Of a stretch of DNA of 29,094 bases, positions 1,741 to 28,243 are shown one piece after another. The DNA comes from a virus (Duplodnaviria > Heunggongvirae > Uroviricota > Caudoviricetes). The notes beneath the pieces are model-generated. The model did no database searches, was not told where the DNA came from, and worked only from the letters and a program-made list of their open reading frames with translations. The stretch's first letter is position 1. Every line of letters starts with the position of its first letter. A program made the position numbers and the translations under genes. Location of the stretch: the IMG/VR virus record IMGVR_UViG_2778261543_000004, positions 1 to 29,094 of that record. The stretch is one strand, 5' to 3'.

Positions 1741-2223
1741 TCACCGGGTCAGTGAATCGTACTGCTTTTCACAGACTCGTCCGGCTTCGGCGGCCCGGTC
1801 AGCGTACTCTGCCAGTTGTCGGTTTCGCTCGAGAGATTTGCTGAGCACGTCGGCAAGCAAAACTCCGGTGTCTGCGGCTGACGTCCCAGCGCCGACAGTG
1901 GCGTTATACTGCCTGAGCTGCTCACGGATGGCAACGAGCTGTTGCTGCAACCTGCCAGCACGAGCGGCAGCATCAAGAGCATCATTACGCGCCTGGTCGA
2001 TCCTCTGCTGCGCTTCACGTTCATTGGTCGCTTTCTCCTGTTCGTCATGCTGACGAGCTTTCTCATCTTCGGCTTTGCGGTCTGCCTTTGCCTGCGCATA
2101 CCCGGCGTCGTACTGTCGATCGCCGTGAGCATTCCAGGCAATCCTGCAGCCGATCACCAGAGCAGCAAGCATCATCACGATAAACAACTGTTTCCAGTAC
2201 GCTTTAACGAATGCCCGGATCAT
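1741..2223 (-). CDS. Phage i-spanin (Rz-like lysis protein)
   Basis: N-terminal transmembrane helix then long Q/R/A/E-rich coiled coil; start overlaps the endolysin stop (ATGA); last gene of the lysis cassette. Confidence 0.75.
   Translation of the reverse strand: MIRAFVKAYWKQLFIVMMLAALVIGCRIAWNAHGDRQYDAGYAQAKADRKAEDEKARQHDEQEKATNEREAQQRIDQARNDALDAAARAGRLQQQLVAIREQLRQYNATVGAGTSAADTGVLLADVLSKSLERNRQLAEYADRAAEAGRVCEKQYDSLTR
1749..1985 (-). CDS. Putative o-spanin (Rz1-like lipoprotein) embedded in the Rz frame
   Basis: Alternative frame inside Rz beginning MMLLMLPLVLAGC (lipobox LAGC), with a Pro/Ser-rich mature part; embedded layout as in lambda Rz/Rz1. Confidence 0.45.
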   Translation of the reverse strand: MMLLMLPLVLAGCSNSSLPSVSSSGSITPLSALGRQPQTPEFCLPTCSANLSSETDNWQSTLTGPPKPDESVKSSTIH

Positions 2224-2849
2224 ACCGCCAGCACCTTACTGGCAGTGATGTACCGCGCGCACCGGTCGTCGATGCCGTTCTGCCCACCATTGATGATCTG
2301 CGTGACGCGCACCAGGTCGCCGGTGTATTTCATGCAGCCTTTTGTTGCGAAGAACCACGCCGCGCTGCGGGCCGCGTATTCGTCCTGCGCCAGCAGCTCC
2401 GGCTGGCTAACCAGCTCAATTTTGAGCCCGTTGCCGCAGTCCCGGTAGTTGTTCAGGCCGGTGATCTGGATAAGTCCGCGCCCGCGGTAGAACCAGCCGT
2501 CGGTCGGCCCGTTGTTCCCCATGCGCTTGCCGTACACCAGATTGGCGATCGCACGCTGGCGCTCCAGCGGTAACGATGGCTCACCAGCACGGCGGCCCAG
2601 CTCGTTGGCCTGACCCTGAGTGAGACGCCCGGCGCGGACGAATCCTACCAGCCCGTTCACGCTGTAGTTGAAGTTCTCCTGCAGCCGTGTGAATCCGCCT
2701 GACTCATGCCCCACCTGCGCGATAAACATCGCCTGATGCAGAGGATTCTCGATGCCAAACTCTTTCATGGCTGCGGTGATATGCAGATACCAGCGCGTGG
2801 CCAGTACCTCACTGATACCAGCTGCACGCTGGAATTGTTTAATGTCCAT
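2220..2849 (-). CDS. Endolysin, glycoside hydrolase family 19 (chitinase-like lysozyme)
   Basis: GH19-type motifs (FIAQVGHESGGF, GRGLIQITG, NYRDCG); lies between holin and spanin; overlaps the holin 3' end. Confidence 0.85.
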   Translation of the reverse strand: MDIKQFQRAAGISEVLATRWYLHITAAMKEFGIENPLHQAMFIAQVGHESGGFTRLQENFNYSVNGLVGFVRAGRLTQGQANELGRRAGEPSLPLERQRAIANLVYGKRMGNNGPTDGWFYRGRGLIQITGLNNYRDCGNGLKIELVSQPELLAQDEYAARSAAWFFATKGCMKYTGDLVRVTQIINGGQNGIDDRCARYITASKVLAV

Positions 2850-3132
2850 GCTGGGACCTCGTTATCTTGAAGATTTGAACCACGTTCCCTTTTGTCTTGA
2901 TGAGAGCAGCCAGGAACACAGCTTTGATGATGACTTCTGACCAGTCGGCGCTGACGTAGTACCCGTAGAACGTTCGGATAGGTACGCTGGCAGCCACGAC
3001 GATCAGCAGGTAGGCGAGCCATCCACCCCACCAGCGATGGCGTGACCCGTCACGGCGGAATAGCAGGACTCGGATTGCAATGCCGCCGCAGATAGCGGCG
3101 TTCAGGATGAGAAGCAGTTCAGGACTGGTCAT
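2839..3132 (-). CDS. Holin
   Basis: 97-aa protein with hydrophobic helices and a charged C-terminus, immediately upstream of and overlapping the endolysin. Confidence 0.7.
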   Translation of the reverse strand: MTSPELLLILNAAICGGIAIRVLLFRRDGSRHRWWGGWLAYLLIVVAASVPIRTFYGYYVSADWSEVIIKAVFLAALIKTKGNVVQIFKITRSQHGH

Positions 3133-3523
3133 CGTCTTTTCTCCCCGGGATCAGGTCGCGCGGATTTTCAGAACGGTGATACAGCCAGATGCCAATGCGG
3201 ACAGCGACGATAGACGATACGAATGCCCCGGCAGAAAACACAATGCCCTTCTCGAAAGAGTCAGGTGTGATTTTCGGGATCCAGCTCGCTATTCCGATAA
3301 GCAATGTCGCTGTGGCTTTATAGAAGAGAACTCCGCATAGGTAGCTGAGGAACGCCAGCAGTAACCGACGCTTAATCGGATACTCTACTGCCGAGGTAAC
3401 AAAAATTACCGCACCAGCAAGCGAACCTAACGCTACCTCGGGAGGGACACCGACGACAACTGAAGCCAGCGCACCCAGGCTAAGCCCCTGATTCAGCGAT
3501 TCCGTGGTTAACGTGTGCGACAT
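3119..3523 (-). CDS. Phage membrane protein, putative second holin or antiholin
   Basis: About 134 aa from the ATG at 3523 (MSHTLTTES...), 3-4 predicted transmembrane helices; first gene of the lysis operon, overlapping the holin start. Confidence 0.6.
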   Translation of the reverse strand: MSHTLTTESLNQGLSLGALASVVVGVPPEVALGSLAGAVIFVTSAVEYPIKRRLLLAFLSYLCGVLFYKATATLLIGIASWIPKITPDSFEKGIVFSAGAFVSSIVAVRIGIWLYHRSENPRDLIPGRKDDDQS

Positions 3524-3585
3524 AGTGACCACCGTTTAATGTGCATAAAGAACCCCCTTAGTTGGTGAGTTCATCATACACAATA

Positions 3586-3670: not shown

Positions 3671-4659
3671 TTACTTGGTTAAGCTTGCTGGCAGGTGGCT
3701 TTTAATTATGTTTTTACCGATGAACACTGACCCTTCATCAGTAGGGTGACCGTAATCCATGGACATAAGCGTAAAGCCACTATCTACCCTTGACCTACAC
3801 TTCAGTTCTGTACCTTCACGTGCACACAAGCCATCAAGTATGTCGACAAAATCATATCCTTCATTGTCTTTTGATATCGTCTTCATTTTGTTATTTGTCG
3901 CGACAATCTGTTTATCCAAAAATCTGTTATCAATGTAAATATCATTGGGATTATAGTTTTTCGCAACAATAAGCGGCAGGCTCCCTTTCCACTGAGGAAC
4001 AGGACCAAGGACTATAACTTTTTTAACACCCAGTGCGTGTATTTTTTCAGCAATATCTTGCCAGTCTGTTTCTTCATGCTGGAATCTCTGAGCTAATACC
4101 ACAACATCAGGTTTAACAATATTTATATCTTCAATGGCTTTTTCATTGGATAGATTACATCCAATTGTGGCACTTATAACTCCAGGGAATTTATGGAGAC
4201 TCGGTTTACAACTTGAAGCAGCAAGTTGATAGAATGGAACGCCATCTTTTAGAAGTGATCTTATCCCTAAAGAAAGTGCTCCCGCGTGAGAGTCTCCCCA
4301 TAAGAAGACACCTCCCCTTTTATCAGTATCGACACATGATTTATCGATATGATCCAGTTTTTCACTGCTGTTACATTTATCCCACATCCCATTATTATCA
4401 AACCGATATCCATCGTAATGCACCACAGTTTCATTACCGGTAGTTTTTGTGATACTTCGCATATCAGTGTTAGCGCCATTAGAAATATATATACCAACAG
4501 CTAAAGCTAATGATGCAAAGTACAGAAACTCCTTTTTAACGCCGCCTCTACTTTTGAAAACACTTTCTATATATTTAAATGACAACATACCCATCGCCAC
4601 TGACGCAACAATTCCAATGAGCGTTGTTAATATAGAAACACCACCATATGTATTATATA
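3671..4659 (-). CDS. O-antigen acetyltransferase, C-terminal SGNH-hydrolase fragment (frameshifted)
   Basis: Last AT3 helix (GGVSILTTLIGIVASVAMGMLSF) followed by an SGNH/GDSL-like domain (GVFLWGDSHAGALS...); upstream of ~4660 this frame is not meaningful, so it is the downstream half of a split gene. Confidence 0.7.
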
Positions 4660-5528
4660 TATAGATAGATCGGCCAGTGCCACAAATAAATTGAATATGA
4701 ATACAACCCAATCTTTTGCGCAAAAGATGAATCTAAGATAATGTTATCAGAACACGACCACAATATGATCATCGTGCCGATGATAGGCAGCAGCGCATTG
4801 TAGCTAGGCCAGTACGATTCCTCGCTAAAAATAAAGCAGGATACTAATATGGTAGCAATCCCGATATATGGGAAAGGTTTTCGTTTAAATATTGATGTCG
4901 GGAAAAGATAAACCACGCCGCCAGCAATCATCTCCCATGCCCTTGTTGGAAGCAAGAAATATGATGAGCTAACTAAAATCCTAGATGCATAAATGCTAAG
5001 TGCTAAACTTAATAGGCCTGCAATCAGAATTAATATCCTAGATACCTTTAAACTGAAAGCCTTTCTGATAATATAAATGGCTAAAGGATATATAATATAG
5101 AATTGCCATTCTACAGATAGAGACCAAGTATGAAGTAACCACTTCTCTTCTGCACCAGGAGCAAAGTAGCTTGACTCCTTCCAATAGACGATATTTGAAA
5201 CAAATAGAAGGCTTGACGCAGCGTGCTTCGCCAATGTCTTAAATTCAGGAGTGTACATGTTGTACCATCCGTATACCATTACGCAAATTAGCATAACGGC
5301 AAGCGCAGGCACTATCCTTCTGGCTCGTGCTTTATAAAAGCCCCACAGAGAAAATTTATTTCCTTCTAATCCGCCAAATATTATTGACGTCATCAAAAAA
5401 CCAGAAATTACAAAGAATACATCTACGCCAACAAATCCACTCGGGACCCATCCTCTGTTGAAGTGGAACAGGACTACAGCAAGAACTGCTATAGCCCTGA
5501 CTCCATTGATATCCTTCCTGAAGTCCAT
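4653..5528 (-). CDS. O-antigen acetyltransferase, N-terminal acyltransferase-3 membrane fragment (frameshifted)
   Basis: Typical AT3 N-terminus (RAIAVLAVVLFHF...GFVGVDVFFVISGFLMT) and multiple transmembrane helices, ending ...YLWHWPIYLYI at a stop inside a (TA)5 tract. Confidence 0.75.
   Translation of the reverse strand: MDFRKDINGVRAIAVLAVVLFHFNRGWVPSGFVGVDVFFVISGFLMTSIIFGGLEGNKFSLWGFYKARARRIVPALAVMLICVMVYGWYNMYTPEFKTLAKHAASSLLFVSNIVYWKESSYFAPGAEEKWLLHTWSLSVEWQFYIIYPLAIYIIRKAFSLKVSRILILIAGLLSLALSIYASRILVSSSYFLLPTRAWEMIAGGVVYLFPTSIFKRKPFPYIGIATILVSCFIFSEESYWPSYNALLPIIGTMIILWSCSDNIILDSSFAQKIGLYSYSIYLWHWPIYLYI
4655..4663. repeat. (TA)n dinucleotide tract at the acetyltransferase frameshift
   Basis: ATATATATA at the junction of the two acetyltransferase reading frames; adding one TA unit fuses them into a single ~619-aa ORF. 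Confidence 0.8.
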
Positions 5529-5625: not shown

Positions 5626-7920
5626 TTACGCTATCACTTTAAGTGTGAGTTTGTACATCAGGCTTACACCGGTTGCTGATATCGGCGTCTGCAGTACCAC
5701 CGCTGTGTTGCTTGCTGATACCACTGCTAATGGAGCGCTTGATCCAGCTGAAGATTGCGAGCTTGCCACGACATGCGCAGTGTAGTCATCGATTCTAAAT
5801 CCTGTTGGGGCGTCGAGTTGCACCCTGCCATCGCCAGCATTGATAACTTTTGTTTGCCATGCGTTATGCCTGCTATATCCGTTGCGTATGTAGTCGTACG
5901 TCTCATTGGCCTTCATGTATCTTTCCATATACATGCAACCAATAGATTCAATGCACTGATAGTTTGCTGGAGCCAGCTTAAGGTTGGTTGATGCTCCGCC
6001 AAGTCTTGAAGCACCCCCAAGATGCATTCCGCATTGCTCGAACGTGATCTTCGAGGATGGGTCTACAGTAACTACGTATGGTGCAAAGGTGCTATCTGTA
6101 TACTTTGAAAGAACAGGCGCATAGTGTTTTACCGATATGTTACTAAACTGACCGACGTATATTAAGCTTCGATTTGAAGATGCAATAGCTGTCTCATCGG
6201 CAGCACCCATAAGAGTTCTCATCACCTTAGCAACGCCTTGAGTTCCAAGCCCCTTGATTAATACACCATCAGTGGAGTCTTGGAGATAATGAAGCTTAAA
6301 TTCTGCTTCAACGCTACCGATGCAATTAATATGGGCACCTTCCCACGCTTCTATCCCCATATCAAATGTTACGTTACTGCACGTATCAAGCGTAATGCCC
6401 ATTGCTGTTTCATTTACACTGTCGTAGTTGCCGTACTGCGCAAGCGCTCCTTCAAACCAACCGTGGAATTTTGCATAATTACAGTTCTTCAGATAGATGG
6501 GGAATGGGGTATGATCCGCCTGAAGTTCAATATGATGTGATGTAGTTGAGCCTCCAACCGTGTCCTTTTCCGGTGATAAGCTTACGGCGTCAAAGTAAAC
6601 GCCCTTGTGGCAAGAATCAAATCTAATAATCCCTTGCGTTCCCCACGCGCTGTATCCAAAACATGCATATTCAGCACCAAACATGCTCACATCCAAATTT
6701 GCTTTTATAGCCATATTTAGGTGTAAAGCAATGGTGCCAAGTCCTTTACTTGCAACATGCCTTGCGGTGTCCCACTTAAAGGTTAATCCCTTAATGGTCA
6801 AATCCCTAAATGCAGAGTCAGAGCTACCAGCTTCATCAGAATCCATAACTCTGCCAATGCATAGCTGCCCGAATTGATAGCTCGAAGAATTGCTAGGGAC
6901 AGATCTAATAAACCCAGTGGTAAAGTCAAAACCTCCTAGAGGCGGTGCGATCCAGGCTGATTTTTGTCCGAATTCTAAATAATCAGTACTCCCAAAGTGA
7001 TACATCTTATTTTTTTTAACATTGATTTGGCACTTCCCTCTGGCATAGTTCTCAGCCGCCTGGCAAGCTGCCCAATCGATGGTCTGAGTTAATGATGTTA
7101 CGAACGGGTATACGGCCTGGGCAGCGGACAGTGTAAGGTATCGCTCAGATAAAGGATGGGCGGTACCGTCCCCGATCGCCCCAAACTGCTCGGGAGTAAC
7201 GTAGATCAACAGTTGAGAAAGGTTTCCCTGAGGCTGCACACCAATAAGCGTCGGCCCGGTTGGCTTTGCCAGTTCAACAAAAACATCTGTTGCCGATCCA
7301 GATGGTGGCATCGTTACATATGGATTGCCTGCGCTGTCGAACGCAATAATTTTGTTCGCCCTGGTCGCAGCATTCGGTAACGAAGGAATTGGTTCTGGAG
7401 TTCTGAGAGTGCGGCTAAGGTTAGAGCTGGCAACGCCATCAACATAATTTTTGGTCGCCGCGTCCTGAGGGTCCCGAGGGTCGCGCACATTCCTGATGTA
7501 GTTGTTTAGGGCATCGTACCAGTTGGCGATACTCGACGGCTTACGCAGCGCCAGGCGGAACATGCTGCCAACCTGCTGTATCAGCATCGTCAGTTTATCG
7601 AATGCGTCTTCATGCACCTCAGCGAAGAACTTACCCTGGTTGCGCAGATCGGTATCCTGCGTAACCGGTAGCTCTCTTGATATAGAGATCTGATAACCGT
7701 TGGCCAATGCCTTCGACAGTATTATATTACCGCCGCTATAGCCTCCCGCACCAGTGACTATGTAATCAGTATCAAGAATCAGCTCTGTGATGTTCTCGTT
7801 CAGGTCAACAACCTGCACTACTAAATCAGATTTCTGGAAAATCCTGAAGGTATAAGGGAATGTCGTTGTAACACCGTTACCGGTGTATTCGTTGTGGTCA
7901 ACTTCGGTTGAGACCGTCAT
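5626..7920 (-). CDS. Tailspike / receptor-binding protein with beta-helix depolymerase-like domain
   Basis: 764 aa; conserved podovirus tail-fibre N-terminal anchor (MTVSTEVDHNEYTGNGVTTTFPYTF...); central pectate-lyase-like motif (FGAIGDGTAHPLS...); position after the internal virion proteins as T7 gp17 / epsilon15 tailspike. Confidence 0.8.
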   Translation of the reverse strand: MTVSTEVDHNEYTGNGVTTTFPYTFRIFQKSDLVVQVVDLNENITELILDTDYIVTGAGGYSGGNIILSKALANGYQISISRELPVTQDTDLRNQGKFFAEVHEDAFDKLTMLIQQVGSMFRLALRKPSSIANWYDALNNYIRNVRDPRDPQDAATKNYVDGVASSNLSRTLRTPEPIPSLPNAATRANKIIAFDSAGNPYVTMPPSGSATDVFVELAKPTGPTLIGVQPQGNLSQLLIYVTPEQFGAIGDGTAHPLSERYLTLSAAQAVYPFVTSLTQTIDWAACQAAENYARGKCQINVKKNKMYHFGSTDYLEFGQKSAWIAPPLGGFDFTTGFIRSVPSNSSSYQFGQLCIGRVMDSDEAGSSDSAFRDLTIKGLTFKWDTARHVASKGLGTIALHLNMAIKANLDVSMFGAEYACFGYSAWGTQGIIRFDSCHKGVYFDAVSLSPEKDTVGGSTTSHHIELQADHTPFPIYLKNCNYAKFHGWFEGALAQYGNYDSVNETAMGITLDTCSNVTFDMGIEAWEGAHINCIGSVEAEFKLHYLQDSTDGVLIKGLGTQGVAKVMRTLMGAADETAIASSNRSLIYVGQFSNISVKHYAPVLSKYTDSTFAPYVVTVDPSSKITFEQCGMHLGGASRLGGASTNLKLAPANYQCIESIGCMYMERYMKANETYDYIRNGYSRHNAWQTKVINAGDGRVQLDAPTGFRIDDYTAHVVASSQSSAGSSAPLAVVSASNTAVVLQTPISATGVSLMYKLTLKVIA

Positions 7921-7972
7921 GTTAAATCTCCAGATAGTCGCAGCACCCGTTGCGCCGCATATCCGGTTATTC

Positions 7973-8037
7973 TATTACCTGAAAAACCATATATGGATAG
8001 ACAACCCATAAATACGAACAGATATTACCTTTCAGGT
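7973..8037 (-). promoter_or_regulatory. Late-operon upstream element, copy A (TATTACCT, CCATATATGG, TATTACCTTTCAGGT)
   Basis: 15-bp exact repeat TATTACCTTTCAGGT (8023-8037) shared with 24633-24647, plus perfect palindrome CCATATATGG (7987-7996); upstream of the tailspike start. Confidence 0.5.
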
Positions 8038-8076
8038 GATTCGCAAAACGTGCTGGATAGCAAATAAATTATTTGA

Positions 8077-8096
8077 TACTGTATATTTATACAGTT
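8077..8096 (+). promoter_or_regulatory. LexA operator (SOS box)
   Basis: TACTGTATATTTATACAGTT matches the LexA consensus TACTGTATATATATACAGTA (CTGT-N8-ACAG core); TTGATA -35-like hexamer overlaps its 5' edge; 20 bp upstream of the 8116 ATG. Confidence 0.8.
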
Positions 8097-8115
8097 ATTG
8101 CATGGAGAAGATAAG

Positions 8116-8373
8116 ATGCAGCAGTATCACTATCCACTGGAAGACGGATTTACCGAAAGGATTCACACGCCGGGAGGCGTCAGATCACTGGTGGAGGGAT
8201 CGCACTTGATGAAATTACTCCGGGAGCTCGATAAGGATGGATTTAATGTCGATGGCCCACTTGCCGAACTGACTGCACTGATTAACTACGTCACCAGCTC
8301 ACAGATGTCTATGCGGGATCTGCAAACACATCTCGACTATTGTGCCGAACAATTACGAAAACAAACCACATAA
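8116..8373 (+). CDS. SOS-regulated small hypothetical protein (moron in late region)
   Basis: 85-aa ORF from ATG 8116 with GGAG RBS 8 nt upstream, directly behind the LexA box; opposite strand to the flanking structural genes. No recognisable family; not DinI-like by eye. Confidence 0.65.
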   Translation: MQQYHYPLEDGFTERIHTPGGVRSLVEGSHLMKLLRELDKDGFNVDGPLAELTALINYVTSSQMSMRDLQTHLDYCAEQLRKQTT

Positions 8374-8379
8374 AGAAAA

Positions 8380-8408
8380 GGCCGCTAGAGCGGCCTGTGA
8401 CATGTCAC
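8380..8408. terminator. Hairpin plus GTGACATGTCAC palindrome between convergent genes
   Basis: GGCCGC-taga-GCGGCC hairpin (8380-8395) adjacent to GTGACATGTCAC (8397-8408); T-tract lies on the - strand (TTTTCTTTAT), so it best terminates the - strand small ORF. Confidence 0.65.
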
Positions 8409-8415
8409 GCTCACG

Positions 8416-8556
8416 TTATGACAAGCCTATGTACCCTGCTACACCAGATAATATCAAAATAACTGCAACAGCAAATTCACCATCACCAATGATACATTTA
8501 CGGTTCATAACGCCAAGTGCAATAAGCGCAAACACAACAAGAATAAAAGCAATCAT
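8416..8556 (-). CDS. Small two-helix membrane peptide (46 aa)
   Basis: ATG at 8556 with AAGGA RBS; translation MIAFILVVFALIALGVMNRKCIIGDGEFAVAVILILSGVAGYIGLS verified by hand; followed by palindrome and terminator. Below the 60-aa ORF-track cutoff. Confidence 0.45.
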   Translation of the reverse strand: MIAFILVVFALIALGVMNRKCIIGDGEFAVAVILILSGVAGYIGLS

Positions 8557-8628
8557 TTCTCATCCTTATTGCGGAGTGACATCCTGCGGTCGCCACCAGT
8601 ATGTCTGGTTAAACTCTTTCTTCGAACG

Positions 8629-11040
8629 TTACTCCATTTTACGCAAATAACCTGGTGAAAAATACTCCTGCATCTGGTTAAATATCATATGATCGAGAGC
8701 CGCCTTCAAGTACCAGAGATTCGCACCTGGCATCAGCCCCTTCCCCAGCTTAACCATATCACCACCAGTCTGCTCATTCTTCCCTTCCACAGCATTTAAC
8801 GGTATGCCCTGAGCTATCTTAACGATATCATCAACAAGGCCTGCCACCGGACCAAGCATCGACGCCAGCGCGCCGCTTCCGTACCTAGTGTGATCTGACA
8901 ATAAAAAGTCACCGTAAAGGCCAAGACCACCACCTTTCAGTAGAGCACCAAGCCAAAATTTAGCAGCATCTTCTCCTGTCATCTCGCGAGGATTACGACC
9001 AGACGCAAGGTCGTTAAGTTGCTGCGACAAAGCGCCAAGAATGGTCGTACTGGCAATAAACGTCGCAATATATGCCGCACGCCCACCAGCAGACGGCATA
9101 CCCATAGCGCGTGACCAGTGACGCATAACCACCGAGATAGGGAACGATTTAAACAGGAAAACACTTCTCGTTAATTCACCCTTCCATGTTCCACGCTGAA
9201 TACCAGAACCGGTTATCAATTGCTCACGCGCGCCAGGTGTAATAACAGCCATATCAACTTCTTCAGTTACGGCACCGAGCAGTTTACGCATTGCCTCAAA
9301 TTTCACACGTTCAGGCTCACCAAGATGTTTAACTGCTGAATCAGGGATACGCATAATGCTTTCCGGTGTCAGCATCGTATTATTGCCGTTCCCCCAGTCC
9401 TCCTGTTGTGCCAGCTTCCATACGCTCCAGTCTGTTTCAGTAATCCCTTTGCTTTTCAGGATACGAAAATCAGAGTCATCGAGGCTACGAAGGTCTGGTG
9501 TCCGTGACACTACTTCTCCCAGGCTTCCCATCATTGTTACGCCATAGGCGCGCTTGTGCGCATCTGACCATGCTGTAAGTCCACTGGCACGCATTACCGC
9601 CGTTGCCGCCCAACGAGACACAGACGGCCCCATATTATCCATCGCCCAGCGGTTAACGCTGCCAAGTAGAGATTCCATCGCCAGACCAGCGCGGCGCGCC
9701 CGCGCAAGCTCAGTACGATTCGTTGGGTCCATAGCTTCAAGCTGGTTGCGAAATAACTGGTTCATTGGAAGGTTGGTAACCTTCGCAGACAGATACATGG
9801 TTCCAAGATCAGAGAACGATGACAGCAACGCGGATCCGAGTCTGCTGGCAACCAGCCAGTTGCGGATATTGTCAGACCATCGCGCGATGTGCGGATTCGC
9901 TACAGGCTGTGTCTTTCCGGAAATAAAGTTGTACAGATTCTCTGTGTTGTTCGCCAGCCGCTCGACTTTACCGGTTTTACTCGGGTTAGCTGTTGCCGTT
10001 TCTGCCTTAACCTGATCAAGAAGGGAGCGGAAAACATGATCGGGGTTTGGACCATATGTTTCCACCAGAGCAATATCTTTACTGATACCTTCCAGGTGAC
10101 CGACCATGATTTCCCATAGAGAGCGATCGCCATAAAGTTGTTGATATTGGAGATAGGAATCTGCATCTTTGAAATGTATCTGTCGTGATGCATTACCACG
10201 GTTAGCACGTGCGCCGGAAATTCGCATTCCTGTATCAGTAAGCTTATTCAGCCCACCAGTAGCGATCGTGTTATAAGCCTCTCCAAGAAATGCAGACAAC
10301 TCGGCATCGTTCATCAGTTGTCCATCGGCTCGGGTATAATATTTGCGATCCAGCTTACCTATAACATCGCTAACCCACTTATCCTTTGATACCGCCCCAA
10401 CCTTTTCCATAGAATGATGTTGAGGGATCCCCCAGTTTTCGAGATAGCCAATGTCCCCACCAGCATCATTAAACCGGCGGCGCAGCAGCTCTGTAACTTC
10501 TCTCCACGCCTTAGCACCTTTTCTTGCTTTAGCATTGCCAGTATTTTGCCCCCGCATTTCATATACCAGGTCACGTACGCCCGCTTCATCTTCAAACAGA
10601 CCAAAAAAGCGAGGATCAACTGCTTCGAATGCCTCCTGCAATTGACTCAATGCATAATCACGGGTAGCTTTTGTTCTGGATTCAACAGAGAGGAAATTAG
10701 ATTTACCGTCTGCATTAAAAGCTATAGTACGGTTAAGAGCGCCAAGTTTCCCATCAGCCCCTTGATAGCTATTGATAAATTTATCCAATCTCTGACGCGC
10801 GGCTATAGTGAGAGCCACACGACGTTTCTTTAATGTCGCTTCTCGCTGTAATTCTTCAGATGCCAATTGTGCTGCTCGATATAGCCGCTCTGATTCGGAA
10901 AGTTGTCGCCACGACATCGGGTCATCACGAGCAATGGAGCGCATATTTCGATAAATGCGGTCTTCAATGTTCTGTATTTCTCGCGCCGTTAACGTGCGCT
11001 GCGCCGCCTGCTGGACCGCTTGTATACATTCCTGTCTCAT
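8629..11040 (-). CDS. Internal virion / ejection protein (T7 gp16-like position)
   Basis: 803 aa; GAGAGG RBS; last large gene of the internal-protein block before the tailspike. Confidence 0.6.
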   Translation of the reverse strand: MRQECIQAVQQAAQRTLTAREIQNIEDRIYRNMRSIARDDPMSWRQLSESERLYRAAQLASEELQREATLKKRRVALTIAARQRLDKFINSYQGADGKLGALNRTIAFNADGKSNFLSVESRTKATRDYALSQLQEAFEAVDPRFFGLFEDEAGVRDLVYEMRGQNTGNAKARKGAKAWREVTELLRRRFNDAGGDIGYLENWGIPQHHSMEKVGAVSKDKWVSDVIGKLDRKYYTRADGQLMNDAELSAFLGEAYNTIATGGLNKLTDTGMRISGARANRGNASRQIHFKDADSYLQYQQLYGDRSLWEIMVGHLEGISKDIALVETYGPNPDHVFRSLLDQVKAETATANPSKTGKVERLANNTENLYNFISGKTQPVANPHIARWSDNIRNWLVASRLGSALLSSFSDLGTMYLSAKVTNLPMNQLFRNQLEAMDPTNRTELARARRAGLAMESLLGSVNRWAMDNMGPSVSRWAATAVMRASGLTAWSDAHKRAYGVTMMGSLGEVVSRTPDLRSLDDSDFRILKSKGITETDWSVWKLAQQEDWGNGNNTMLTPESIMRIPDSAVKHLGEPERVKFEAMRKLLGAVTEEVDMAVITPGAREQLITGSGIQRGTWKGELTRSVFLFKSFPISVVMRHWSRAMGMPSAGGRAAYIATFIASTTILGALSQQLNDLASGRNPREMTGEDAAKFWLGALLKGGGLGLYGDFLLSDHTRYGSGALASMLGPVAGLVDDIVKIAQGIPLNAVEGKNEQTGGDMVKLGKGLMPGANLWYLKAALDHMIFNQMQEYFSPGYLRKME

Positions 11041-18838: not shown

Positions 18839-19446
18839 CAGGACAACCTCGCAATGGTAAACTCGTCAACCGGTGGCTGTGGTTCCTGTGATTCATTCTG
18901 GCTATGCGAGCCAGCACTAAGAATCACGCGATTGTACATATTGAGGGCAAACGTACCGAGGTCTGCATTCCCAGTCAGCGCCATGTTAATAGCTGCCGCA
19001 AGACGCCAGGCCAACGCCTCCATAAAAATGGCATCAAACATGTTCACATCTGTAACGCGAGAGACATACTTGAGCCATGCCTGCGGCTGGTCTGTGTAGA
19101 TCAACTTTCCTGTTCCGTTGGTGTCTGCACCAACTTCGTACTGAACGCGCATTGCTGCTGTTGGATTGCGTACACCAGGAAGCATAATTTCAGTAATGCG
19201 CAGACAATCGGACGGGTACTGGTACGCATATTCCCAGTCAGGCGGTGGATTGCTCGTATCTGCAAGCGCCACGCGTTTGGTAGCAAAGTTCCAGTCAAAA
19301 TCAGAAAGAACAGCATCACGGCAGGCCTCAAAGTGCAGCGAACATTCCCCCGCTTCCTTGCTGGCTTCCTTCAGGCTGTTAATGCTGCGGCTGTTGCCAA
19401 TATTGGACAGCGCACGATTACAGATCTCTACTACAGAGGCCATCAC
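18838..19446 (-). CDS. Tail tubular protein A-like (adaptor/gatekeeper)
   Basis: 202 aa, size and position equivalent to T7 gp11, immediately upstream of the gp12-like gene. Confidence 0.55.
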   Translation of the reverse strand: MMASVVEICNRALSNIGNSRSINSLKEASKEAGECSLHFEACRDAVLSDFDWNFATKRVALADTSNPPPDWEYAYQYPSDCLRITEIMLPGVRNPTAAMRVQYEVGADTNGTGKLIYTDQPQAWLKYVSRVTDVNMFDAIFMEALAWRLAAAINMALTGNADLGTFALNMYNRVILSAGSHSQNESQEPQPPVDEFTIARLS

Positions 19447-25618: not shown

Positions 25619-25638
25619 CACCGTGACATGTCACAAAC

Positions 25639-27887: not shown

Positions 27888-27899
27888 GTGACATGTCAC
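27888..27899. repeat. 12-bp perfect palindrome GTGACATGTCAC (third copy)
   Basis: Identical to copies at 8397-8408 and 25623-25634; overlaps the stop codon of the zinc-ribbon gene and sits ~40 bp before the terminator. Confidence 0.8.
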
Positions 27900-28243
27900 A
27901 CTATTAATTTCGTTTCATGCCAGCCTTTAGTCACCCAGCATTGCGAGTCACCATTACACGGGCATGAATTAACAGGAACTCTCTCGCCGCACTTACCGCA
28001 ACGTTTTCTACTGATCGATTTTATACGCCCGCGCACACGTGCATCATCCTGGCGGATCAGCAGCGCGATGTACTCGGCCATTTCATAGGGATCGCGACCA
28101 GGGCGCCGGGCGGCGCAGTTCCGCGCCAGCATTTCCTGCTCCTGCTTATCCAGCACCAGTTCAATTTTGCGCTCACCGGCGGCGGACTGCCGAGCGCGCT
28201 GCGCGGATTTGCGTTCTGCGGGGGATTTAGCCACGAATCGCAC
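27896..28243 (-). CDS. Cys4 zinc-ribbon small protein (possible regulator)
   Basis: C-terminal CGKCGERVPVNSCPCNGDSQCW motif (C-x2-C-x8-C-x-C); basic N-terminus. Start uncertain: GTG at 28243 (115 aa) or ATG at 28132 with strong AGGAG RBS (78 aa). Confidence 0.55.
   Translation of the reverse strand: MRFVAKSPAERKSAQRARQSAAGERKIELVLDKQEQEMLARNCAARRPGRDPYEMAEYIALLIRQDDARVRGRIKSISRKRCGKCGERVPVNSCPCNGDSQCWVTKGWHETKLIV

Follow-up and report, generated by a model that had tools for sequence, protein, structure and literature searches.

Cor of phages N15, phi80 and HK022 and Llp of T5 block the outer-membrane receptor FhuA, and Llp and T4 Imm are small envelope exclusion proteins. In N15, the exclusion gene cor stands together with two membrane-protein genes within the late tail operon, before the terminator. 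The sieA gene of phage P22 lies between the ejection gene 16 and the tailspike gene, and its product targets the ejection-protein conduit (PMC10883804). SieA has 162–164 amino acids (aa), three transmembrane (TM) segments, its own promoter, PsieA, and several barely related sequence types (PMC10883804). Phages of the epsilon15 type eject internal proteins that form a trans-envelope tube, and epsilon15 gp17 has been assigned as the equivalent of IVP-D (internal virion protein D) in T7 (PMC4819975). Here we describe an open reading frame (ORF) of 46 aa at 8416–8556 on the − strand of a prophage sequence of 29,094 nucleotides (nt), IMG/VR record IMGVR_UViG_2778261543_000004, which comprises positions 1–29,094 of that record and is called the window below. 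Like P22 sieA, this ORF lies between the ejection-protein genes and the antirepressor/tailspike region of a temperate podovirus, and its product is predicted here to be an inner-membrane protein. We found that the ORF is an already annotated, ordinary conserved small membrane protein gene of phages. The best explanation overall, to which we give nearly even chances, is that of a terminal operon gene whose product would form an inner-membrane hairpin and serve as an accessory envelope factor, most likely as an entry block.

The window is an epsilon15/phiV10-type (genus Uetakevirus) prophage integrated in Escherichia coli. Its region 7900–8700 has 99.8% DNA identity to a prophage of E. coli GPEC1405 and 95% to phage vB_EcoP_PAS61 (PAS61), and phiV10, TL-2011b and Salmonella phages match parts of the stretch. 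On the − strand, genes for portal, capsid, tail and internal virion proteins are packed into an operon that extends from ~24.3 kb down to 8.6 kb, and beyond it follow the small ORF, the tailspike gene (5626–7920), an acyltransferase gene and the lysis genes.

The 46-aa gene and its place in the late operon

The features on which the following analysis rests are these.

8416–8556, − strand: 46-aa two-helix membrane protein gene (phiV10p21/SPN1S_0020/PHROG 7892 family), ATG start, peptide MIAFILVVFALIALGVMNRKCIIGDGEFAVAVILILSGVAGYIGLS
8557–8568, − strand: intercistronic junction, where the usual stop TAA of the gp17-like gene (8566–8568) overlaps the Shine-Dalgarno (SD) sequence AAGGA, with a 9-nt spacer to the ATG
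8629–11040, − strand: gp17-like internal virion (ejection) protein gene, T7 IVP-D homologue (phrog_684, E=0)
8369–8396, − strand: late-operon intrinsic terminator from a terminator scan and RNA fold, with a 7-bp stem (6 GC pairs), a 4-nt loop and TTTCTTT

The initial annotation had described an unlisted ORF with a ribosome-binding site, encoding two hydrophobic helices and the loop NRKCIIGDGE. We observed that the ORF is present at 8416–8556 with TAAGGATGAGAA immediately 5′ of its ATG, and that the helices and the loop are borne out by both hydropathy and AlphaFold2. The mean Kyte-Doolittle values were 3.05 for residues 1–17, −0.82 for residues 18–27 (the loop) and 2.19 for residues 28–46, and the AlphaFold2 model obtained with the family alignment has helices at residues 2–19 and 25–45 (mean predicted local distance difference test score, pLDDT, of 93). 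The C-terminus of the peptide, ...GYIGLS, has no charged residue. We infer that the peptide inserts into the inner membrane as the predicted helical hairpin.

The ORF was unlisted in the list of ORFs available to the initial annotation, but not otherwise: it is annotated in phiV10, PAS61, SPN1S, SPC32H and 65FD, and the PGAP coding sequence WP_172822476.1 lies at the matching coordinates in E. coli GPEC1405. The phiV10 gene, phiV10p21, carries the annotation 'putative integral membrane protein; two predicted transmembrane helices', and the homologues in PAS61 and SPN1S are WMX19000.1 and SPN1S_0020, respectively. The phiV10p21, SPN1S_0020 and SPC32H proteins have 83–94% identity to the peptide, the same length of 46 aa, the same position after gp17 and the same terminator, and differ from it in nothing substantial. 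The match to PHROG 7892 is full-length (hmmscan E=2e-31, residues 1–46 versus profile positions 1–46 of 46). An exhaustive hidden Markov model search of 1.84 billion cluster representatives gave only 5 clusters (50% identity), all belonging to one small family, whose members come from E. coli, Salmonella and Citrobacter. When one representative genome per bacterial and archaeal species was scanned, a single locus was found, in Citrobacter braakii.

By itself the length of the ORF is unremarkable, since this 4-kb stretch is overlapped by 49 ORFs with 25 aa or more; it stands above chance as a gene because it is conserved across relatives, not because of its length. The comparison set consisted of 52 loci (the window and 51 related loci), which hold 26 distinct intact alleles. 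Among these alleles, the variable sites at codon positions 1, 2 and 3 numbered 25, 9 and 40, and the ratio of non-synonymous to synonymous substitution (dN/dS, Nei-Gojobori), a comparison suggested in the initial annotation, was ~0.25, indicating purifying selection. The reading frame is conserved and remains open in distant family members. In diverged loci the SD is retained by differing sequences (AAGGATGAG, AGGATTCG, GTGAGG, GGGAG and AGGAGTAT). Conservation is highest in the loop with its flanking residues, [ML][NE]RKG[IVM]I..(E)F, and in GVAGYxG at the C-terminus, and both motifs persist at ~45% identity. As judged from these sequence comparisons, the ORF is almost certainly a real protein-coding gene.

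An alternative would be a chance ORF in the 3′ untranslated region of the operon, or the shadow of an opposite-strand gene, the candidate for which is the following.

8342–8650, + strand: 102-aa ORF antisense to the 46-aa gene; a shadow ORF that shares third codon positions with it, begins inside the SOS gene ant and has stops in distant relatives

ORFs as long as the 46-aa one are common in the stretch, and the antisense frame also has a low dN/dS of 0.17, which is a known artefact in a frame sharing third positions. However, the codon-position bias and the conservation of start, SD and stop all speak for the sense frame, which is open in distant members, whereas stops interrupt the antisense frame in 6 of 7 of them; the + strand ORF also starts within ant and crosses the terminator. 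The comparative data thus appear to have largely refuted this alternative, and we regard it as scarcely credible.

The 46-aa gene begins 7–12 nt past the conserved C-terminus of the gp17-like protein (...FNQTYWWRPQDVTPQ, then stop) in 52/52 loci and in more distant members, and the same junction is found in relatives whose DNA aligns in register. No convincing sigma-70-like promoter was found within 500 nt upstream, where a consensus scan gave none on that strand; the best matches of a relaxed scan of these 500 nt reached 8/12 and were not conserved, and weak or non-canonical promoters could escape a sequence scan. At the other end, the ORF closes with TAA (8416–8418), 7 nt before the palindrome GTGACATGTCAC (8397–8408), and then comes the hairpin AGGCCGCTCTAGCGGCCT (8379–8396), with TTTCTTT on the − strand and without a T-tract on the + strand; this arrangement of palindrome, hairpin and T-tract is as first described. 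Nearly all related loci keep a hairpin, the bases of its loop and stem differing between them. Because gp17 is adjacent in every locus, no promoter was found and a terminator follows directly, the 46-aa gene is very probably the last cistron of the late structural/ejection-protein operon.

The gp17-like gene of the window has a peculiarity of its own. At 8629–8631 (− strand) it carries TAA, versus CAA (Gln) in every aligned relative, so that the protein loses 21 residues and ends in ...LRKME instead of ...LRKMEQRSKKEFNQTYWWRPQDVTPQ. This early stop leaves ~60 untranslated nt 5′ of the SD of the 46-aa gene. The nonsense codon could reflect a decaying prophage or a sequencing error.

The slot after gp17 and the function of the 46-aa peptide

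The position of the 46-aa gene is a slot with the conserved 3′ end of gp17 on one side and the palindrome and terminator on the other. We searched 5,426 complete E. coli genomes with a query spanning the slot and the gp17 3′ end. Matches were obtained in 285/5,426 genomes, and the 46-aa gene was present in only 54. The other contents of the slot in E. coli are cassettes B and C, located as follows in representative loci (coordinates are those of each locus).

1321–1494, − strand, E. coli locus L084: 57-aa ORF of cassette B
18843–19016, − strand, Klebsiella phage BUCT711 (locus L057): 57-aa ORF of cassette B
914–1530, − strand, locus L085: cassette C, carried by genomes including APEC O1, IAI39 and CE10

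Cassette B (~205 genomes) comprises a 57-aa two-TM ORF and a 98-aa multi-TM protein of PHROG 3075. It also occurs in BUCT711, and by eye the E. coli and Klebsiella copies of the 57-aa ORF are ~80% identical. This ORF is unannotated, starts with GTG or TTG behind a good SD and directly follows the gp17-like gene. Cassette C (34 genomes) encodes a short TM peptide and a 126-aa lipoprotein with the lipobox LLVGC (PHROG 3716), and in epsilon15 the slot is filled by the unrelated 64-aa two-TM gp18 (PHROG 29212). We detected no mutual homology among the slot cassette proteins (hhalign probability <1%), and the family searches run found no known function for them. Epsilon15 gp18 and the cassette-B proteins resemble the 46-aa peptide in being small two- or multi-TM proteins in the same slot with the same palindrome and terminator, but have no detectable homology to it. 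Each cassette examined, in E. coli and in epsilon15, ends at the same palindrome, followed by the terminator hairpin. In BcepC6B, a distant epsilon15-like phage, the IVP-D and tail fibre genes are neighbours with no gene in between. The swapping of the slot contents and the lack of a slot gene in BcepC6B indicate that the slot is accessory and lies outside the conserved virion module, with small envelope proteins as its theme.

These observations bear on the possibility that the peptide is a virion or ejectosome helper, i.e. a hydrophobic chaperone or partner of the gp17-like protein in conduit assembly or membrane insertion. The gene directly follows gp17 in every relative in a layout that looks translationally coupled, and the ejected proteins of epsilon15-type phages do form a trans-envelope tube (PMC4819975). 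However, unrelated proteins fill the slot while the gp17 C-terminus stays essentially identical, BcepC6B manages without such a gene, and frameshifted or truncated alleles exist in relatives. We consider a helper function decidedly unlikely.

A second possibility is a late lytic membrane effector, made only late, which would modulate lysis (as a holin, pinholin or antiholin-like protein) or depolarise the membrane. The apparent co-transcription with late genes is consistent with it, and small-xxx-small motifs (SGVAGYIG) could drive oligomerisation. The two TM helices in a small phage protein are also a property of class II holins and pinholins such as S21 68, and the 98-aa protein of cassette B has a weak, sub-threshold match to a holin family (PF16079, E=0.027). 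Against this stands a complete lysis cassette elsewhere in the window.

2220–3532: lysis cassette with PF16931 and PF05449 holins and endolysin, >4.8 kb from the 46-aa gene

The tailspike and acyltransferase genes separate this cassette from the 46-aa gene; spanins are annotated in the relatives. Unlike class II holins and pinholins, the 46-aa gene is outside the lysis cassette and its product has neither a charged C-terminal tail or domain nor a dual-start motif; it has no Pfam holin match, and the lipoprotein of cassette C fits a holin slot poorly. A lytic role, including the holin-like one proposed at the outset, is therefore unlikely.

Superinfection exclusion fits the genomic context best among the three functions that had been offered for the peptide, the other two, holin-like and toxin-like, being unlikely (the latter is weighed with ant below). 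Interchangeable and unrelated small membrane proteins and lipoproteins beside the DNA-delivery genes of a temperate phage resemble exclusion loci, and it is for this reason that we favour exclusion. Inserted into the inner membrane, the 46-aa peptide would act as an accessory factor of the envelope and would interfere with the trans-envelope DNA conduit that the ejection proteins of incoming phages build. We regard ant, the terminator and the palindrome as neighbours and operon punctuation, not as regulatory partners of the peptide. By analogy with the described systems, an exclusion or entry-block function is possible, and we propose it tentatively, as a reading that may well prove wrong. The likeness to Cor, Llp and Imm lies in the small, phage-encoded membrane proteins and lipoproteins, of which cassette C also encodes one; the 46-aa peptide differs from them in having no homology and in being predicted in the inner membrane.

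Several points weigh against exclusion. With 46 aa and two TM helices, the peptide is far from the 162–164 aa and three TM segments of SieA. We found no similarity to characterised exclusion proteins in Pfam, PADLOC and NCBIfam searches (the latter two gave no match at all), and SieA, which was checked by motif, shares nothing of this kind, as FxRYPxEAxxFNK of types A to C (PMC10883804) does not occur in the 46-aa sequence. For the 46-aa gene we found no promoter that could serve expression in the lysogen, whereas sieA has PsieA, and purely late expression would be unusual for an exclusion factor. Moreover, phiV10 already excludes itself by O-antigen acetylation, and the searched literature yielded no experiment or expression data on the 46-aa family. 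Finally, the gene is disrupted in 9/52 loci by four independent events (frameshifts in two cases, a deletion at the N-terminus and the loss of the stop), and it is thus dispensable, at least in resident prophages. As to a known family for the peptide, Pfam gave only DUF5367, with E=0.081, below threshold, and this candidate was rejected.

By itself the peptide carries little weight, being an annotated hypothetical membrane protein from a well-sequenced genus. If exclusion is true, however, it would be among the smallest known entry-blocking proteins, and the slot, which has three alleles and occurs in ~5% of complete E. coli genomes, would offer a natural set for testing how peptides of the inner membrane tell the ejection machineries of podoviruses apart. 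It would also bear on phage therapy and on O157 diagnostics based on phiV10, in which detection can be masked by resident prophages.

The convergent SOS gene ant

The 46-aa gene faces the 3′ end of a LexA-controlled gene, as had been noted, and this gene is the sole + strand gene in the stretch around the small ORF and the tailspike and lysis genes.

8116–8373, + strand: ant, LexA-controlled antirepressor (the SOS gene); PDB 5d50 chain E 'Anti-repressor protein', phrog_450
8079–8094: LexA box CTGTATATTTATACAG, 5′ of ant, read from the sequence
8024–8040: Rep-operator-like inverted repeat ATTACC-TTTC-AGGTGAT, between ant and the tailspike gene

The consensus of the LexA box is CTGT-N8-ACAG, and the site at 8079–8094 fits it. 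The ant product matches 5d50_E over 84/85 residues (phmmer E=1.8e-47), so that the gene resembles the SPC32H-type antirepressor Ant both in sequence and in having an upstream LexA box. The scheme of a LexA-controlled antirepressor is established for such prophages, including SPC32H (PMC7380047, citing Kim and Ryu 2013). The repeat at 8024–8040 matches ATTACC-N4/5-GGTAAT, the type of site to which the epsilon15 annotation assigns repressor binding; epsilon15 has such operators annotated at seven places, those upstream of terS and gp3 among them. The divergent ant/tailspike control region thus combines a Rep-operator-like repeat with a LexA box, as in epsilon15.

The initial annotation had paired the 46-aa gene with the SOS gene and had noted that their convergent layout would allow antisense interference. 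The comparison of the 52 loci does not bear out a special tie. The two genes are directly convergent in 34/52 loci, with a gap of 46–54 nt, and in the other 18/52 a cargo of 0.24–2.8 kb lies between them, while the 46-aa gene stays with gp17 in 52/52. In phiV10, the cargo after ant consists of a Bro-N domain protein and a 29-aa ORF, and a separate terminator is annotated after ant. The cargo insertion hotspot lies between the terminator (8379) and the 3′ end of ant (8373). Because ant is separated by cargo in 18/52 loci and the gp17 link is kept in all of them, the convergent layout, and with it any antisense effect, is incidental to the window variant and not conserved. On the + strand no T-tract follows the hairpin, so that in this variant transcription of ant may to some extent run on, antisense to the 46-aa gene; such read-through is not a conserved feature.

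A further possibility is a type I toxin-like peptide, whose mRNA would be opposed by antisense transcription from the convergent SOS-induced ant. The peptide is indeed small and hydrophobic, and through the shared hairpin ant transcripts could enter the 46-aa gene in the window variant. However, no promoter of its own was found, no Rfam family matched (a permissive threshold gave only a chance snoRNA match), the convergent partner is displaced by the cargo and, in phiV10, closed off by its separate terminator, and alternative cassettes occupy the same slot. We regard the toxin-like role that had been suggested as very improbable.

The palindrome at operon ends and the gp49-like putative regulator

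The palindrome that follows the 46-aa gene had been taken as an element shared by the peptide and SOS genes. We found instead three exact copies in the window, at operon ends that are syntenic with those of epsilon15 and SPN1S, and this view of the element is not borne out.

8397–8408: perfect 12-bp palindrome GTGACATGTCAC, copy 1, at the end of the late operon
25623–25634: copy 2, exact, 4 nt past the end of the gp50-like gene, with a hairpin and T-tract directly behind it; syntenic with epsilon15 2142
27888–27899: copy 3, exact, overlapping the TGA stop of the gp49-like gene
27896–28243, − strand: gp49-like putative zinc-ribbon regulator gene; PHROG 536 'transcriptional regulator', C-terminal CxxC...CxC...C, N15 gp46 homologue

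With up to 2 mismatches allowed, the window has 6 matches to the palindrome versus 1.08 expected, and 0/100 shuffles reached 6. One copy stands where the late operon ends, one where the gp50-like gene convergent with terL ends and one at the stop codon of the gp49-like gene preceding terS, and each copy is 0–40 nt upstream of a hairpin and T-tract in the direction of transcription. Epsilon15 (2142, 19517 and 39612) and SPN1S have three copies each at the same syntenic places; phiV10 has two, and a third with one mismatch spans the ends of its record; BUCT711 has three exact copies, two of them syntenic. BcepC6B has no copy anywhere in its genome. At the 46-aa locus the palindrome is exact in 45/52 loci and forms the best-conserved intergenic block. 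The TGA of the palindrome serves as the stop codon in several genes.

Unrelated phages also carry homologues of the gp49-like gene, and the site travels with them. In N15, the homologue gp46 ends in GTGACTGGTCAC, and the genome has three copies of GTGAC-N2-GTCAC versus 0.045 expected. Over the stop codon of the gp49-like homologue of phiKO2 we found CGTGACTGGTCACG, and over that of Klebsiella phage ST512-KPC3phi13.3 the same GTGACATGTCAC as in the window; Pectobacterium phage ZF40 has TGTGACATGTCACA after gp22 and three exact copies in its genome. GTGAC-N2-GTCAC thus stands at, or overlaps, the stop codon of the gp49-like gene in at least 5 phage lineages, whereas it is absent from the stop codon of one Yersinia and one Vibrio homologue. 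Because the site travels with the putative regulator gene across phage lineages, the data suggest that the gp49-like protein and the palindrome are a candidate cognate protein–site pair. The AlphaFold2 model of the gp49-like protein is poor (pLDDT 62).

As RNA, the palindrome folds to at most a 4-bp hairpin, and its variants are single uncompensated changes; an RNA structure was rejected on this ground, and the same two facts favour a candidate sequence-specific site acting at the level of DNA. It was also rejected as a Rep operator, as Rep sites are ATTACC-N4/5-GGTAAT, and as a genome end or cos site, as there are three copies per genome and the phiV10 record merely ends at a stop codon within the site. 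The spread of its 14-mer in IMG/VR was uninformative, with many coding coincidences (e.g. an MRDMSQ N-terminus) and a collection size that may yield chance matches; 36% of the 14-mers versus 4.8% were near terminators, driven largely by homologous Uetakevirus sites. The string GTGACATGTCAC was not found in the searched literature.

This by-product may be of more interest than the peptide, as the site and a putative zinc-ribbon regulator gene are found together in Uetakeviruses, N15-like phages, ZF40 and a Klebsiella phage, which gives a directly testable protein–site pair. A bolder reading of the slot and of the site can be put forward as speculative and improbable. The slot would be a dedicated swap slot for entry-exclusion or defence peptides, with at least 4 unrelated envelope cassettes, the 46-aa hairpin among them, each blocking the DNA conduit of different rival podoviruses. 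Separately, GTGACATGTCAC would be the cognate site of the putative zinc-ribbon regulator gp49/N15 gp46 (PHROG 536), and the pair would govern whether transcripts terminate or read through at three operon ends, one of which the SOS-induced antirepressor shares.

Outside these elements, we observed that the O-antigen acyltransferase gene of the window (3671–5528, − strand) seems to be split into an ORF with the AT3 domain (4653–5528, 291 aa) and an ORF with the SGNH domain (3671–4723, 350 aa). The latter is in another frame and overlaps the AT3 ORF, and relatives annotate one protein of ~619 aa. The split is likely due to a frameshift near codon 291.

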